64,000 nt of DNA from Squalus acanthias (taxonomy: Eukaryota): positions 33,604,001-33,668,000 of the forward strand of contig CM059449.1 in assembly GCA_030390025.1 (NCBI GenBank), in the 5' to 3' direction. The notes beneath the pieces were generated by a model. That model was not told the origin of the DNA and made no database searches. It was given only the letters and a program-made list of their open reading frames with translations. Position numbers and translations under genes: made by a program. Shown piece by piece: positions 5,634-42,428 of the stretch; the stretch's first letter is position 1; each line of letters begins with the position of its first letter.

Positions 5634-6008
5634 AGGATTCACGATGATTATTTCAGTGTGTTCTTGGATCCAATGCAAGACTCGCGTTTGACCCTCTCAG
5701 GTTCTGGTTAAACACCGTTGTAATCTAGGGAGTGAAATCGATATGTTAGACAATCCCGAGATGAAGGTGCAGAGCACAGTACAGAGAATGAAGTGACTTG
5801 TTCATTCTCTTTTCATGGTTCTTCCCCTTATAGGTAGCTCAGAGGCAGTTAGTTTAGTGCACAGGAGTAGCGGGCCTAAAGAGCGGTCGATTCTCACTAC
5901 CTTCGCCTGGAGGCCGGTAGCCTTATCGTTCCGTTAATGTTGTGCAGGGTCCAGTCAGTTCCACAGGCGATGAAACCGGAGAGACCTGTTTGCCCTCCGG
6001 ACTGCCCG

Positions 6009-6955: not shown

Positions 6956-7006
6956 TCAGGAGTTGGCGGTGCTGCTTAAGGAAGTATTTGAAATGTCTGC
7001 CTTGTT
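6956..7006 (-). CDS. Probable terminal cytoplasmic exon of the class I gene (NKADISNTSLSSTANS*)
   Basis: Strong acceptor TTTCTTTTCAG. The phase-0 frame gives a Ser-rich tail typical of class I cytoplasmic ends, with TGA at 6958-6956. Confidence 0.6.
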   Translation of the reverse strand, partial: NKADISNTSLSSTANS

Positions 7007-8492: not shown

Positions 8493-8600
8493 CTCTCCGT
8501 TTTCTCCTCCAAATACAGATTAAAACTATAACGAAAGCCAGCGACACCAGCACACACACGACAATCAGCCCCACATGCTTGTCTTTCTCTACTTTTCCAT
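8493..8600 (-). CDS. MHC class I connecting peptide/transmembrane exon
   Basis: 108 nt, phase 1-1, TTTTTCAG/GTAAAT. Translates DGKVEKDKH-VGLIVVCVLVSLAFVIVLICIW-RRKRR, a TM helix plus basic stop-transfer signal. Confidence 0.92.
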
Positions 8601-9609: not shown

Positions 9610-10112
9610 NNNNNNNNNNNNNNNNNNNNNNNNNNNNNNNNNNNNNNNNNNNNNNNNNNNNNNNNNNNNNNNNNNNNNNNNNNNNNNNNNNNNNNNNNNN
9701 NNNNNNNNNNNNNNNNNNNNNNNNNNNNNNNNNNNNNNNNNNNNNGAGCGNNNNNNNNNNNNNNNNNNNNNNNNNNNNNNNNNNNNNNNNNNNNNNNNNN
9801 NNNNNNNNNNNNNNNNNNNNNNNNNNNNNNNNNNNNNNNNNNNNNNNNNNNNNNNNNNNNNNNNNNNNNNNNNNNNNNNNNNNNNNNNNNNNNNNNNNNN
9901 NNNNNNNNNNNNNNNNNNNNNNNNNNNNNNNNNNNNNNNNNNNNNNNNNNNNNNNNNNNNNNNNNNNNNNNNNNNNNNNNNNNNNNNNNNNNNNNNNNNN
10001 NNNNNNNNNNNNNNNNNNNNNNNNNNNNNNNNNNNNNNNNNNNNNNNNNNNNNNNNNNNNNNNNNNNNNNNNNNNNNNNNNNNNNNNNNNNNNNNNNNNN
10101 NNNNNNNNNNNN
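9610..10112. other. N-masked or gap segment in intron alpha3-TM
   Basis: Run of N with a 5-nt island (GAGCG, 9746-9750). The left flank is AG-rich, suggesting a low-complexity tract. Confidence 0.95.
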
Positions 10113-11470: not shown

Positions 11471-11737
11471 CCCAGGAGACTGTTTTCCCACCCGGCAAGC
11501 TGCTGTGCTCAATATGACAGGAGTATTGTTTCCCATCATACGGATCAAATTCAAGGGTTGTCGTCAGTTGATACGTCCCATCTTCATTGGGTAATAACCC
11601 AGTAGATTTGGTCTCGGGGGCATGTTCTCCATTCTTCAACCAGGTAACGCTGATGGACTGCGGGTAAAATCCAGTCACAATGCAGTGGAGAAACCAACGA
11701 TCAGCAGCCCTGGCAATAACTGAGACCTCAGGGGAAA
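11471..11737 (-). CDS. MHC class I heavy chain alpha3 (Ig C1-set) exon
   Basis: 267 nt, phase 1-1, TAG/GTAAGG. Translates VSPEVSV...LHCIVTGFYPQSISVTW...LPNEDGTYQ...YSCHIEHSSL...VSW. Confidence 0.97.
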
Positions 11738-11964: not shown

Positions 11965-12240
11965 CTTTTCTGGTTAGTGATGCGTTTCCAAGTGAATAGT
12001 ATGTCCTCCATAAATCCACACAGTCCTTTTCTAACAAGCTCTTGAAATAAAGGTTCATCTTTGTTTCCTTATCCCATTTCACTTTGAAGGTCTGAGCTAC
12101 TGGATCATGTACAGTCCAAACCAATTTGTCTTTATCAAAACTAAATGCGTATCTTCCATCATAAGCAAACTTCAAAATCCCTACACTAGGGTTGGCATCA
12201 TTCAGCTCACAGCCAAACAGTCCTTGAAGGTAGTGAGTAC
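11965..12240 (-). CDS. MHC class I heavy chain alpha2 exon
   Basis: 276 nt, phase 1-1, TTCTAG/GTAAGT. Translates THYLQGLFGCEL...FAYDG...AQTFKVKW...LEKDCVDLWRTY, with the C101/C164 disulfide pair. Confidence 0.97.
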
Positions 12241-16362: not shown

Positions 16363-16623
16363 TTGATGTTTGGTTGTTCTGCTGCATCCATCTATCAACC
16401 TGTCCCTTGATGAGTCCGTGGAATCCAGCTTGAGTTATTGTGTATTCGTCCCAGTAACTCTTCTCAAATGCTTCTGCCATCCATTGCTGTCTTGGAACAG
16501 TTATTTTCATATTTTTGTCGTAATAGTCTATCTCACAGCCATCCAAAAGCCCCATAACACTGTACTCCGGCAGATCAGCACTCCCATGGTTCAGGGTGTA
16601 GTAATATAACAGAGAGTGAGACT
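16363..16623 (-). CDS. MHC class I heavy chain alpha1 exon
   Basis: 261 nt, phase 1-1, acceptor TCCTAG, donor GTGAGT. Translates ESHSLLYYYT...PRQQWM...SYWD...NQTS, with the H3, Y7, D29, P47-R48, W51, Y59-W60 equivalents and the N86 glycosylation sequon. Confidence 0.96.
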
Positions 16624-18575: not shown

Positions 18576-18650
18576 AAATACGTTGTTCTCGATGGCGGTC
18601 ATGTCGTGCAATAAAGAATATAGCCGCACAATTCCTGTCATTTGACTTAC

Positions 18651-18702
18651 CAGGAACCACCCTTTGAGAAAAGTAAAGTCTCAGTAAAGCAAAGAGGAAC
18701 AT
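18651..18702 (-). CDS. MHC class I-like gene, proximal leader exon, MFLFALLRLYFSQRVVP+G
   Basis: ATG at 18702, 52 nt, phase-1 end, donor G/GTAAGT. Same length as the distal leader, with shared nucleotide blocks (ATGTTyCT, TACTGAG, CAA, CTG/GT). Confidence 0.65.
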
Positions 18703-18865
18703 GTTTCAGGGAGTCGCTCAGTTAAAATCCTGCACAGCGAAACGGGAAGGTTTTGTCGTTGTCCGAACCCCTCCCACATTATTCTGCTTATCTCGTTCAG
18801 TGAAAATCATTCTATCCAATGGGAAATAAATCACCTCCCGTCACTGGGGAGGGAATCTCTGGCTC
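18703..18865 (-). promoter_or_regulatory. Candidate promoter of the proximal leader exon (inverted CCAAT, kB-like site)
   Basis: ATTGG on the sense strand at 18820-18816, 114 bp from the ATG. GGGAATCTCT at 18851-18860 is a 9/10 match to GGGRNNYYCC. Confidence 0.4.
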
Positions 18866-19945
18866 TACTCCCAGCATTAGGAACTGCGGGCGGAATTGGA
18901 TTAGAAAAGACCACACTGGTGAATGGCAAAGACTTGAAACTGGAGGAAGACTGGGACACAAATTGAAAGCACCGGCGAGAATATTTCCCACTGAACCTGA
19001 TCGGTAGCGATTATAGAGCTGGCTGTTAAAAGCAGTAGCAATCTCCAATCCTGTGTTTGCACCTTATCAGAACAGGTGCAAACCTCACTGACAAATACAG
19101 CCTCGCCTTGTTAAGGTCAAGGAAAGGCCAATCACAGGCTGGTCACTTTCAATGTTTCTGCTGGGTGATAGAAAGTTTACAAGCTATACAATCTGAAAAT
19201 TCAACCCTCCTCCCTTTCAGAGGTGGTGTAAATCTATCTGCTGTGAACAGATTGAGGCTCTGCTAAAATAGTGAAAAGAGGAATTTCATACCAAGCAACA
19301 AATACACTTGTTGATTGACTCTTATTACTCGCTGTACCGCTGTACATGTTCTGCCTAAAATTACTGTTGGCAATATTAGTAAGACATGTTATTGTCCACT
19401 GTTGTAACACAGCGAATATCCCACTTGTTTTAAACAGGCTGCACCATTAAGTTAACAGGCAAAGCAATGTTACACCAATATGGTAAGCATTTCACCTCCA
19501 ATATCACCAACATTAATTTAGGAACAGGAGGAGGCCATTCAGCCCCTCGAGCCTTTTACTGCCATTCAATTAGGTCATGGCTGATCTGTAATTTAACTCC
19601 ATCCAATCATGGAATGAGACAGCACAGAAGGAGCCCATTCGGCCCATTGTGCCTGTGTCGGCTCTTTGGTAGAACAAGCCAATGATTCCCACTACCTCTT
19701 TTTTCTCCATAGCCCTGTATTTTTGTTTTCCCTTTAAGTATTTGTCCGATTCCTTTTTCAAAGTTACTGTTAAACCGGCTTCCACCTGATGTCCTGAGGT
19801 GGTGAAAGGCGCTGTAGAAATGCATTTCTTTCTTTCTCTCTTTCTTCCACAGCAGCTGTAACAGGTGCCGAAAGCTGCCTCTGGTGTTTACCCCGAACAG
19901 CTCCAGGCTGTGAGCAGCAGGCGCCGATCAATTCCAACAGTCAGT

Positions 19946-20130
19946 GGGCTCGATCTTGACTTTGTGCGATAGTAAAACGGGCGATAGCCAGTCGGCAGCT
20001 CCTTTTACAGCTCTCCAGATTTTTACTGCCATTGAACTCAATAGAAGGGGGAACGGGTTGAAAGATGGAAAAAGGGCTTCAGACTCGCTCTCGCCCTCTT
20101 TACACCATCGCACAGAGTCAACATGAGCCC
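19946..20130. mobile_element. Palindromic MITE-like element
   Basis: TIR GGGCTCGATCTTGACTTTGTGCGAT / ATCGCACAGAGTCAACATGAGCCC; centre CCATTGAACTCAAT. Confidence 0.75.
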
Positions 20131-20907
20131 GAATGGAACCGCACATGGTGGGAATCCGCTACAAACAGCAAATGTTGCAAATATGCAGCAGGTCAGTGTG
20201 AAAGAGACAGAGAGGTTAACTCTGGGAGCTCAATCTTCACCCGAACCTGCACGGACCGCCTCAAAGCTTCATTCTAAAGCGAGTCGGAAAGTGTAAAAGA
20301 GGTTCCCGGGTCGCTGGAACCCGTTTCCCCCTTTGATAAAAGTGAACCCCTCCCTCTGTATTTTTAATGTTTTGCCCGGTTCATTGGGAGTTTTAAAAGG
20401 TTTTCCAAGTTCCCAGGAGGTAGAAAGAAGCTTTTAAAATGCAGCTTCCCGCCGGCTGGAGTTACACTGAAACAGGTGTGAACCCGAACCGACTGAGCTG
20501 CTTTCCTGCAGGAGTCTAGCCGCTGGGCTCTTGGTCACTCAGGGGTCAGGTCGGGATTGGGCTCGCAGTTATACTGACACTTCCGTACCCGCAAGCCGCT
20601 TAGCGGGAACACACTGTCCGTCTCCCTCCTGCTTATCAGAGAGAACATACAAGCTGTCATAGTAACTGAGCTGTAATGTCAGGCTGTCCGGACAGTAATG
20701 GACATCATCTAATCCAAGCAGAGGGAGAAGCGAGCCTGAGAAGCAGGATGGAGATTCCAATCCCGCTTCATCGCTTCACTTCCGCACACACTGTCTAGTT
20801 TCCCTGTGTGATACACCTGATGTGACCGACAGGCCTGCCGGTTACAGTCTAAGATCAGAGGGTGAGCCTGGAGACATTCAAGGATGCAGCGGGAACCGGC
20901 TACTCAC

Positions 20908-20959
20908 CAGACAGGGCCGCTTGTAGGCGGGAGAAACTCAGTACAAGTGACAGAAACAT
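20908..20959 (-). CDS. MHC class I-like gene, distal leader (signal peptide) exon, MFLSLVLSFSRLQAALS+G
   Basis: ATG at 20959, 52 nt, phase-1 end, strong donor G/GTGAGT. Hydrophobic peptide ending A-L-S. Splices in frame to the alpha1 exon (G+AG=Glu). Lies in a CpG-rich region. Confidence 0.8.
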
Positions 20960-21140
20960 GCCGACCCGTCCGTCCATCCGCCCGCCGTCTCTCCCAGTGA
21001 CAGAACAAGACTGAGCGCCTTGAATGAAACCGAGCTCAGCTTCACTCACAAGTGGGCAGTGTGGGAGCTCACCGTCCAATCGCAGTCACTGATTGTTCAG
21101 GGCTGTCCCTGAACCGTGAGCAGCACCGAAACTGACTCTC
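20960..21140 (-). promoter_or_regulatory. Candidate promoter of the distal leader exon (inverted CCAAT/Y-box, partial ISRE-like motifs)
   Basis: ATTGG on the sense strand at 21080-21076, 117 bp from the ATG. Sense-strand CAGTTTCGG near 21126-21134 and a GAAACCGA motif near 21026. CpG-rich. Confidence 0.5.
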
Positions 21141-26070: not shown

Positions 26071-26330
26071 TTGAACTGAGGTTCATCTGCTGTAACGTTC
26101 TGGAAAGTTGCCCTTTCTGATTCCGTGGAAACTGGCTGCAGTAATTATGAGTTCCTCACAGTAACTGGTGTAATAGGAATTCACCATCCACTGCTTCCTT
26201 GGAACCGTTATGTACATATTGCTGTCACAATAGTTTATCTCACAGCCATCCACAACCTCCATTATACAATAGTCCGGAAGATCAGAAATCCCATGGTCCA
26301 GTGTGTAGTGATTCATCAAAGAGTGAGAAT
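26071..26330 (-). pseudogene. Orphan frameshifted alpha1 exon of a paralogous class I gene
   Basis: Translates DSHSLMNHYTLDHGISDLPDY...DGCEI...ITVPRKQWM. Intact TTCTAG/GTAAGT sites, but 260 nt (1 nt short), giving an in-frame TGA at 26085-26083. Carries Y7>N and W60>C. No alpha2/alpha3 partner seen before the next gene. Confidence 0.9.
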
Positions 26331-31300: not shown

Positions 31301-31699
31301 AATTGACCAACTGAGAGGAAAATTCACCCTAATGAAATAGTAAAGCCGCACTTAAGAGTGGGTTGGGATATCATTGTGCACAATGCAGAGAGCAAATCTG
31401 CCCCTGGGTTATAATTAGGTTTATACAGATTGTTGAGGAACAGTTCGTCCAAGATTTTAAAAAATGCAATGCATTTTAATATTGCAGAAAATGCTCTACA
31501 ATGTGTAAAACTCGTGTTGCTGATATTTCTGCTGTCCTGACACGCACCTCTAGCTGTTCTTTGCTCCTCGGGGTTGGAGAGCAAAGAGCAAATGGATTTC
31601 TGGAGACAGTTCATGGTGGGGTCACTGCGGGTCCTGGGGCGGAAGCTCCCTTATGCAGCGGGTGCGAGTGTTTGTACAGTCTGGTCCGTATTTTCCGCT

Positions 31700-33425
31700 C
31701 GGAGGCTTCCCGCGGACGGAAACCCCCGATCAGCAAAAAAGATTCGTACCGACCTGAAGTCACTGCGCCCACGGAGATTTTCGCTTTCTGGAGGAGGAAT
31801 CCTGGGCAGCGTATGACGTCACGCTGCCCAGGAGCGCAGCGTGCGCGCAGCCTCGTGTTTCGATCGGAGGGTAGACCCGCCCACAAGAGCGATCTATATT
31901 TATATTTGCATAGGCCACGCCCCCGAATTCTTGAACTCTTCAGAGGCGTTCAACACTGAACGCAGCTGTGAATCTCAATGGTAAGTTCTTTCTTTATAGG
32001 GATTTAAAAACTTTTGTAAACTTTAAAAACTTTTAAAGACTTTTTACATGGATTTGAAGAATCTTATATAGTTTTAAATAGTTTTAAACAGAATTCAAGC
32101 AATTTAAAGAGTTTGAAATGCCCTGAAAACATTTTCATTAATTTTAATTCATCAGCAAATTGAAATGGAAGGACCAAGCACAATTCGCATGATCAAGAGA
32201 GCTCAGAATTTCACTGGTGATGAATTCAGCACACTCCTCAATGAGGTTGAGGCGAAACATTGGGAATGATAACTCCAGAGCGCCGTGCAAAGGACAGATG
32301 ACAGCTTGGACAGAAGTTGCCCAGGCTGTCAGCGGCATTCCATGGACAGCGGAACAATGCCGCAAAAAAAATAATGATTTGATGCGATCTGCCAAGGTTT
32401 GTAGAGTTATTAGAAATGTCAATTGCAATACTTGTTTAAATTTAACTGAACTATTTTGAAAAAATATCTTATATGCACGGGTGTTCTAAAGTGACTTCAT
32501 TATCCAGGCATCTGAGCTTGTCATAAAATTTTATGGATCTGGGGTTAGCTCCCGGTCATCCATTCTTTACTCTACAGCTTTGAGTTCTGAAATTTCAAAT
32601 AGTGAAAAACAACCCTGTCTCCAAAGCAGCATGTGGTCCTGTCTCAAAGGCAGGTGGGTGGTCGGTGCGGGAAAAACTGAAGTTACCATTTTATTCTGTT
32701 TACATTTTAGAGTAAAATTGTTAACAACGCCAGAGGGCGTGCCCTGACACGCGGTGGTGTTGTCAGTCTGAGGGAGTTATAGGAGCAAGAGGAAATTGTC
32801 ACGCAATTGCTTGGAATCAGTCGTGGCAGTTCAGTGCCTGGTGCCCAATCAGACATTGGGGTAAGGAAAGGTGAGCTGGCCTGTCCAACTTTATGCTTAA
32901 AACTGTTAGGTGTGCCTTGAATATCAGCTTCTGTGATGTGGCAGATCGTGCTTCACCTTTGTAAATGTTTATTGTTTCCTTCCCACAGGTGTACAGCTTC
33001 CTTCTCACACACGGGATGAACAGTGCGTTGAGTCTGCGGGTGCAGAGGGCATTGGGGAACGGGTTACAGATGCAGTGGGGTCAGTAAGTGAGGTGGAGGA
33101 GGAGAAGGAATTTTTGCTGCGTCAGCTAGTGGAAGGGTGGGGTATGTACCCTGGGTGGCTGCAGAGCACCTTTCCATCTCCTGGCCGCTCTAGCTCTGTA
33201 CCAGGCACAGATGACTGTTGTTCGACAGCCAGACACCAACCTGATACAGCAGAGCAGGTGGGAGAAGCAGCAAGACGTTCAACGCAACGGAATGACATAG
33301 ATGCTCAGATGCAACAGGTTGAAGGGTTGAGGTAAGAGATGTGTACACTTCATGTGAAGAAAGTTGACTTTCTTGCCTCTTTCAGACAGGCAATTAATGA
33401 TGTTATTATGGCACTTGGTCAGATC
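31700..33425 (+). mobile_element. Second defective Harbinger-type element, Myb/SANT-like ORF remnant
   Basis: 32165-32396 translates MEGPS..KRAQNFTGDEFSTLLNEV...AWTEVAQAVSGIPWTAEQCRKKNNDL (frameshifted). Next exon near 32711 translates SKIVNNARGRALTRGG. Truncated by a CR1; left boundary uncertain. Confidence 0.65.
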
Positions 33426-41100: not shown

Positions 41101-42428
41101 CTCATGTCGGTGGTTCTGTCTGGTTAACTGTCAGTTTCATCTTTGATCGGGTTGGGCCATTTGTTGCCAAAAGTTGCCAACAATATACTGCACTGAAGAC
41201 GCTGGGGCTGTGGTTAAAGCGGCGATGCGTTCCATGAGCGTTTCATGAAGTATTACAATCTACTTTGTATATGAACTTCGTGAAACAATGGAGAAAGTAA
41301 CATGCTCTTGCTATGTAATATAAAGCTTCTATAGCTTAACTATATGGGTAGAATTTTGTGGTAGGAATCTATTTTAACCCCATTAGATCCATTGGTTTTG
41401 ATTTTACTGCTGAATGCTCTGCTAATCAGACACATTGCACTTGCAACCAGAATGAGAAACGGTCTCCGAGGAAACGAGAAGAGTGAGAATCACAATGATC
41501 CAGTGATGGAGAATCGAAGAAAATGTATGTTTTTATTTCTCACCATATCAGGCATAAATACCTTTTATCGATGGTAAAATTCGAATCTTATGTATGTGTC
41601 CAATTTACAGATTCTCCATTTTTTAGCAGCAAATTATAGCGACTCATTCCCCGTCATAAAACTAGCTGGATATATTCATTGGACTTTGAGTTGCTGCACA
41701 AACACTTTTATTGATGGAGTTTCCAGAGTAAATTCAGAGATGAGTTGAAAAATATGAAAAAGCGTCCCCTGGCTCCAATACCGCATCATGTAATTAAGTT
41801 AAATAGCTGCACCATGTTAGAAAATGGGGATTTAATTTTGGGAAATACTGAAAAAGAGGCGGCATCAAATTACACGACCAGTATGCACCCACCCCCACCC
41901 CGCCTCCCCAATTTTACCTTCCATTGAATTAAATGGGCAAGAGAATCAGGCGTGCTTTATAAAGCCGGTCAAATTGGGTATCGACAATTTTCAAAATCGC
42001 CCCAAGTTAAAATTGTTCCCAATTGCATCCCTCCAAATATAACAGAGATACTTCAAAATGACCCATCACTTCCAAACTGATATGTCATATCAAAACTGAC
42101 CAGCACTCTCAAACTTTCCCATAACTCCCAGGCTTACCCATCACCCAAACTGACCCATCACCCACAAACTGACCATCATCACAAACTGAGCCCTCACCCA
42201 AACTGACCTATCAGCCCCAAACTGATCACGCACCCTAAACTGACCATCACCGCAAACTGAGCCTTCACCCCAAACTGATGACACACCCCAAACTGACCAT
42301 CACCCCAAACGGACCAGCACCTCATACTGAGCAGTCAACCCAAACTGACCATCAGCCCAAACTGAGCCCTCACCCCAAACTGACCTATGAACCCCAAACT
42401 GACCATCACCCCAAACTGACCACCTCCC

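Follow-up and report, generated by a model that had tools for sequence, protein, structure and literature searches.

The window, by which we mean the whole stretch of 64 kb that was analysed, carries on its minus strand a class I gene with a complete layout, in which leader, alpha1, alpha2, alpha3, transmembrane segment and tail are linked by an open frame (Table 1). Sequence similarity assigns this gene to UGA, a nonclassical MHC class I lineage of elasmobranchs. Its alpha1 and alpha2 are closest to named UGA sequences and not to UAA, UCA, UDA or others, and alpha1 finds PDB chain 9ch4_A with an E value of 2.8e-43 and 63/86 identical residues, the next best chain reaching 2.4e-12. The alpha1 of 9ch4_A is the sequence labelled Gcirratum_UGA (nurse shark) in supplementary file 10 of PMC10751288 (partial text), and in that supplement four lineage-specific words had matches only in UGA rows, with one word finding no match. 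What nurse shark UGA (9CH4 chain A) has in common with the window gene is this alpha1, whereas two leader cassettes and an upstream dead alpha1 belong to the window locus. A paper linking 9CH4 with a shark was not found in the literature. UGA homologues came from sharks and rays only (15 matches in one protein search, 17 in another), the closest gene body being a sawshark model at 89%, and trees of the body reject neither a grouping of the window gene with Heptranchias (p-AU 0.26) nor one with Pristiophorus (p-AU 0.18).

The predicted tail ends in a Tyr-x-x-hydrophobic motif (Tyr-x-x-Val) that is common to shark homologues, and motifs of this type resemble the endosomal sorting motifs in CD1 tails. 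An earlier candidate for the tail exon near 7005 was superseded by 5724-5708, which fits the homologue tails. The intron between the alpha3 and transmembrane exons contains an assembly gap (N runs, 9610-10112). A tblastn search with 51 proteins found no other class I gene in the 64-kb window. UFA and UGA have been described as single- or low-copy, MHC-linked and CD1-like in a review that cites a personal communication, and lipid binding by UGA is likewise given there at second hand, from a personal communication (PMC12562908, partial text).

Upstream of the single intact gene body stand two leader exons 2257 bp apart, each of 52 nt, each beginning with ATG and each ending in phase 1 at a consensus donor (CTG/GTGAGT in the distal exon, CTG/GTAAGT in the proximal one). 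Start codon and donor make both compatible with one common second exon, and from either leader the frame stays open through alpha1, alpha2, alpha3 and the transmembrane segment. The sequence-only reading of this DNA had described two such exons about 2.2 kb apart with strong donors, in frame with the same alpha1 exon, and the exons and their peptides lie where it had put them, on the minus strand. It had also placed an inverted CCAAT 117 and 114 bp from the two exons; these distances are those to the ends of the ATTGG motifs, which start at -121 and -118. Its further claim that an alpha1 exon is absent between the cassettes holds, since no remnant turned up there with tblastn to E 10 or in local alignments of the DNA, which 23 and 63 of 100 shuffles equalled. 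In the distal 5' flank an in-frame ATG lies 18 nt ahead of the leader ATG, together with out-of-frame traces of a short N-terminal extension known from galeomorph models. The proximal cassette has two upstream ATGs in the stretch that leads from its Y box to the leader ATG, and a stop closes the one that is in frame.

Table 1. Features of the UGA locus in the window
Feature	Position	Strand	Remark
Predicted cytoplasmic exon, tail DYNGV-stop	5708..5724	-	Resembles shark homologue tails; outside contig-covered stretch
Connecting peptide and transmembrane exon	8493..8600	-	
Alpha3 exon, intact	11471..11737	-	Joined to alpha2 in contigs, 4/4 runs
Alpha2 exon, intact	11965..12240	-	Joined to alpha1 in contigs, 4/4 runs
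Alpha1 exon of UGA, intact	16363..16623	-	
Proximal leader exon, 17 aa	18651..18702	-	Arg at position 8, Pro at -1; homologue of Heptranchias leader; likely vestigial
CRE half-site TGACG (-141) and inverted CCAAT (-118), proximal cassette	18816..18843	-	X2-Y-like pair
Distal leader exon, coding part, 17 aa	20908..20959	-	Ala at -3, Ser at -1; likely working first exon
Inverted CCAAT (ATTGG, Y-box-like), distal cassette	21076..21080	-	Starts 121 nt before ATG; putative function
Orphan alpha1 pseudo-exon of UGA paralogue	26071..26330	-	47/86 aa identical to the gene's alpha1

By their alignments the two cassettes are true duplicates, homologous beyond chance, as the earlier reading had proposed. 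The whole leader exons have 28/52 bases in common, and after the ATG the identity is 25/49 against 15.3 +/- 3.0 in shuffled sequences, a value that 1/2000 shuffles reach; a global alignment from Y box to donor scores 58 against 22.4 +/- 9.3, with 2/1000 shuffles as good. A 281-nt local alignment of the cassettes is not significant (123/1000 shuffles as good), and homology is absent from the 600-nt flanks, where 10 and 100 of 100 shuffles align equally well. By chance, an open 52-nt ATG exon with a donor arises in 127/2000 intron shuffles, and one that also has a CCAAT at the right distance in 10/2000.

In the proximal cassette a CRE half-site stands 23 nt before the ATTGG, a pairing that may be compared to the X2 and Y elements of the SXY module (PMC8620871, partial text); the distal cassette is without a CRE half-site. 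The pairing of CRE half-site and CCAAT occurs two times in the 64 kb on both strands, for a pattern that was chosen after it had been seen. The sequence-only reading had set an ISRE-like distal cassette against a kB-like proximal one, a contrast that dissolves on inspection: one-mismatch sites of both kinds are found in both cassettes, and they occur in 83, 84 and 99 of 211 background windows of 300 nt (about 40-47%). CpG is raised in both cassettes and likewise in 16/55 neighbouring windows.

Evidence for splicing comes from assembled contigs of 4 of 22 listed runs (X1 to X4, from two studies), runs whose records carry no RNA label. All four join alpha1 to alpha2 and alpha2 to alpha3 across the GT-AG introns that had been predicted, and this suggests that the runs contain spliced RNA. 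The first X1 contig (843 nt, depth 57.3, zero differences from the window) covers alpha3, alpha2 and alpha1 and extends 20 letters beyond 16623, the start of alpha1. The bin that contains the distal leader has a depth of 3.33, and 20 x 57.3 / 344 gives 3.331; the same sum fits four other bins (11.38 vs 11.4, 0.591 vs 0.59, 0.419 vs 0.42 and 2.403 vs 2.4). The two leaders agree at only 9 of their last 20 bases, so that one would not be mistaken for the other. From this depth arithmetic, on one contig of one run, we infer that the distal leader is joined to alpha1 in a spliced X1 contig, and the distal exon would thus be the first exon of the main assembled transcript. In X3, a contig on 20908-21016 leaves the window exactly at the distal donor and runs on for 40 further letters; because it differs from the window by 8 letters and 4 gaps, it probably derives from a paralogue. 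The X2 contigs cover neither leader. In the bin of the proximal leader (18624-18967) the depth is zero in X2, X3 and X4 and 0.59 in X1, where a contig on 18927-19169 accounts for all of it and stops 225 nt short of the proximal ATG. Missing proximal cover is not counted as evidence, because contigs drop rare forms. The dual use that had been proposed for the two leaders is unproven, only the distal join being indicated. The X3 and X4 contigs at 11535-11694, 16497-16608 and 20908-21016 are 5-11% off the window and represent a second, diverged UGA copy.

The two leaders were also compared across species. The distal peptide is identical at 15/17 positions to two Pristiophorus (sawshark) models and at 13/17 to a Heterodontus (horn shark) model. 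The proximal peptide is 11/17 identical to both isoforms of a model from Heptranchias perlo, a sevengill shark (XP_067834250.1, XP_067834249.1), with which it shares its first seven residues as well as Ala5 and Arg14, two residues that are absent from the others of 23 leaders. A leader profile was built from 24 of 51 proteins, one per species or paralogue, of which 22 were left aligned (P0004 had no recognisable leader, and the Mustelus leader was offset by a two-residue gap). Against this family the mean BLOSUM62 score is 39.9 for the distal leader and 19.9 for the proximal one, the latter below all 22 aligned homologue leaders (27.8-42.2, leave-one-out). A cleavable signal peptide has an unbroken hydrophobic core and a small neutral residue at -1 (the -3/-1 rule). 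The proximal leader departs from this pattern: it has an Arg at position 8 within the core that occurs in 0/23 other leaders, a longest uncharged run of 7 (homologues have 9-13, one has 6) and a Pro at -1 that recurs in 1/23, a divergent Pristis copy; the usual basic residue at position 11 is also missing. The doubt that the sequence-only reading had cast on cleavage of the proximal peptide, for its internal Arg and its Pro at -1, was fair. The Heptranchias leader is of the same type but differs at these very points: position 8 is Ser, position 11 holds the basic residue, and a Ser at -1 makes a normal cleavage site; the comparison is with the predicted protein models.

The leader type was scored in 55 proteins with a leader region, 9/64 having been skipped: 49 are nearest to the distal leader, 2 are true proximal types, 3 are low-identity noise and 1 is a tie. 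Nearness to the distal leader says little for rays, because the distal peptide lies near the family average. None of the species among these 55 proteins shows both types. A search of short protein fragments for the proximal type gave 1 candidate and none that passed, and a metagenome scan gave 46 pattern matches, none confirmed. A Stegostoma N-terminus with a final Pro (P0019, P0020) is not taken for a homologue of the proximal leader, given its 3/17 identity, and is probably intron read-through. Because its leader type heads the Heptranchias perlo model, the proximal exon is not a product of chance, and its type is old and was probably once functional. If the window species is not hexanchiform, the duplication happened before the sevengill lineage branched off, over 200 million years ago; if it is hexanchiform, the duplication may be younger.

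The history of the locus is visible further upstream. An orphan alpha1 lies 5.1 kb upstream of the distal leader on the same strand as the gene, so that the order along the locus is dead alpha1, distal unit, proximal unit and intact body. It has suffered one 1-nt deletion near its 3' end and retains its acceptor AG and its donor GTAAGT; in the alpha1 tree it sits unplaced on a long branch. No alpha2, alpha3 or leader partner for it was found in the window, and no leader cassette upstream of it (4 and 2 of 50 shuffles as good, the best alignments falling in repeats). A six-frame scan with the leader profile likewise gave no leader for it, the two known leaders, both of them in the profile, taking ranks 1 and 2. 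The orphan exon shows that duplication and decay have taken place at this locus. Copy number of UGA is also unstable among relatives, with three models in Pristiophorus, three in Pristis and ten members of a cluster in Rhinoraja. Indeed, leftovers of duplication are ordinary in class I clusters.

Does the intact look of the proximal exon speak for selection? The exon has no disabling lesion and the lowest profile score of the leaders, and a remnant alpha1 lies nearby. The sequence-only reading had taken the retained ATG, length and donor as a sign of selection, and this argument is weak, because the dead alpha1 exon keeps its splice sites too. The lesion rate of that exon (one in 260 nt, resting on one event) predicts 0.82 for a lesion-free stretch of 52 nt, so that an intact-looking exon of this length is expected even without selection. 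Purifying selection between the leaders gives no sign, in a comparison of little power (pN 0.47, pS 0.58 on 13 synonymous sites). The excess divergence of the proximal leader is not significant either (11/17 vs 15/17, Fisher p 0.22; against 72/86 for alpha1, p 0.09).

On this evidence we consider it fairly probable that the gene works with the distal exon as its first exon, the proximal one being a decaying leftover of an old tandem duplication inside intron 1. Transcription would start at the distal promoter, the distal donor would splice across 4284 nt to alpha1 with the proximal cassette skipped as intron, and the protein would receive an ordinary signal peptide that can be cleaved off. Tandem units of promoter and leader may have arisen when the whole gene, or its 5' end, was duplicated repeatedly; the alpha1 behind the distal unit would then have been lost, the distal unit would have taken over the gene body, and the proximal unit, of the Heptranchias type, would have come under relaxed selection in the lineage of the window. 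Alternatively, an ancestral gene may have had both units, of which different lineages kept different ones in use; the trees of the gene body are compatible with either course. The distal join by arithmetic, the X3 contig at the distal donor and the close matches and high family score of the distal peptide all suggest that the distal unit is the one in use. The low score of the proximal leader, its Arg and Pro, the unstable copy number and the lack of species with both types make its decay likely. Against a leftover counts that the proximal cassette keeps ATG, frame and consensus donor, that its ATTGG is equally far from the start codon, and that it has a CRE half-site with X2-like spacing. As Ala5 and Arg14 are shared only with Heptranchias, the proximal unit is old, and the keeping of so many signals is less likely under long neutrality. 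The non-significant excess divergence and the one Pristis model that also has Pro at -1 count against it as well.

These kept signals, coding, splicing and promoter alike (Y box and CRE half-site), are what would be expected if both cassettes were live alternative first exons, the distal one dominating and the proximal one firing in other tissues or on induction to give an isoform whose signal peptide is weak or shifted. That the proximal type heads both Heptranchias isoforms agrees with this, as does the loss of rare forms from assembled contigs, and Ser residues at -3 and -1 of a point four residues into alpha1 may offer a later cleavage site. The reading nevertheless meets the poorest family match of all aligned leaders, an Arg in the core and a Pro at -1, the two upstream ATGs, a motif contrast at background level and the absence of species with both types among the 55 proteins, and we regard it as doubtful. 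We further speculate, with little confidence, that UGA has had two units since before the sevengill split and that lineages have switched between them; here the proximal unit would be inducible through its X2-Y pair and would yield a CD1-like molecule whose signal peptide is poorly cleaved or shifted, so that promoter choice would set the trafficking of a class I protein that presents lipids.

A use without protein is improbable, though it has some points in its favour: the proximal cassette may be kept as a regulatory element of intron 1, either as an enhancer (CRE, Y box) or as a poison exon. Its promoter motifs look better kept than its peptide, and HLA-C offers a precedent in tuning its level through an upstream promoter and untranslatable transcripts (PMC5785035, partial text). 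For a poison exon there is a pyrimidine-rich AG acceptor at 18730/18729 (window 18729-18760, minus strand), 27 nt before the proximal ATG, and the distal exon spliced into 18729 would meet a stop after two codons; such acceptors are common, however, and no join of the distal exon into 18729 was found among the joints listed (15 of 73). A chance resemblance or an artefact of assembly is largely refuted as the source of the proximal exon and very improbable. Chance does often satisfy loose criteria (234/2000 shuffles gave a hydrophobic phase-1 ATG exon of 40-79 nt) and the assembly does contain gaps, but the identity to the distal exon and to the leader of an independent species speaks against a look-alike, and the two copies are far too diverged for haplotypes, with no N near either cassette.

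Two known systems help to place the arrangement. HLA-C has a second, upstream promoter that is NK-specific, and its transcripts can skip the first coding exon; its upstream exons are non-coding 5' UTR, and skipping leads to untranslatable RNA (PMC5785035, partial text). In the window gene, unlike HLA-C, both first exons are coding duplicates, and the use of the second is a proposal only. IGF1 has two leader exons that exclude each other, each with its own promoter, before one gene body, and would serve as the working model if both units of UGA are used; it belongs to an unrelated family and both of its exons are of proven use (PMC3607797, partial text). The gene itself belongs to a named lineage, and what appears new is the two-leader layout, which was not found in print for UGA in a search of mostly non-subscription papers; the literature searched likewise yielded neither a class I gene with two coding first exons nor an account of the leaders or promoters of UGA. 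Should the proximal unit be a leftover, the locus offers a small, clear example of how promoters and leaders are replaced within a multigene family: the unit farther upstream comes to head the gene body as the nearer one decays. The lesson for annotation is that the true first exon is not necessarily the one closest to alpha1. Should the proximal unit be live, UGA would count as a class I gene whose two first exons are both coding, and its lineage matters for how CD1-type lipid presentation arose.

The surroundings of the gene hold further features. At 41115-41774 on the plus strand lies a broken seven-transmembrane receptor (stops, frameshifts) similar to a skate 'GPR139-like' protein, and UGA exons are fused to a receptor of this kind in the skate RefSeq locus LOC129716032; because of this fusion, the receptor may be a conserved neighbour of UGA. 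A CpG island at 31560-31960 (GC 0.59, observed/expected 1.07) looks like the promoter of a further gene, and contains what we take to be a palindromic CRE and an octamer-like motif. Between 42093 and 46449, C-rich minisatellite arrays with a unit of 17-18 nt alternate with fragments of LINE reverse transcriptase.
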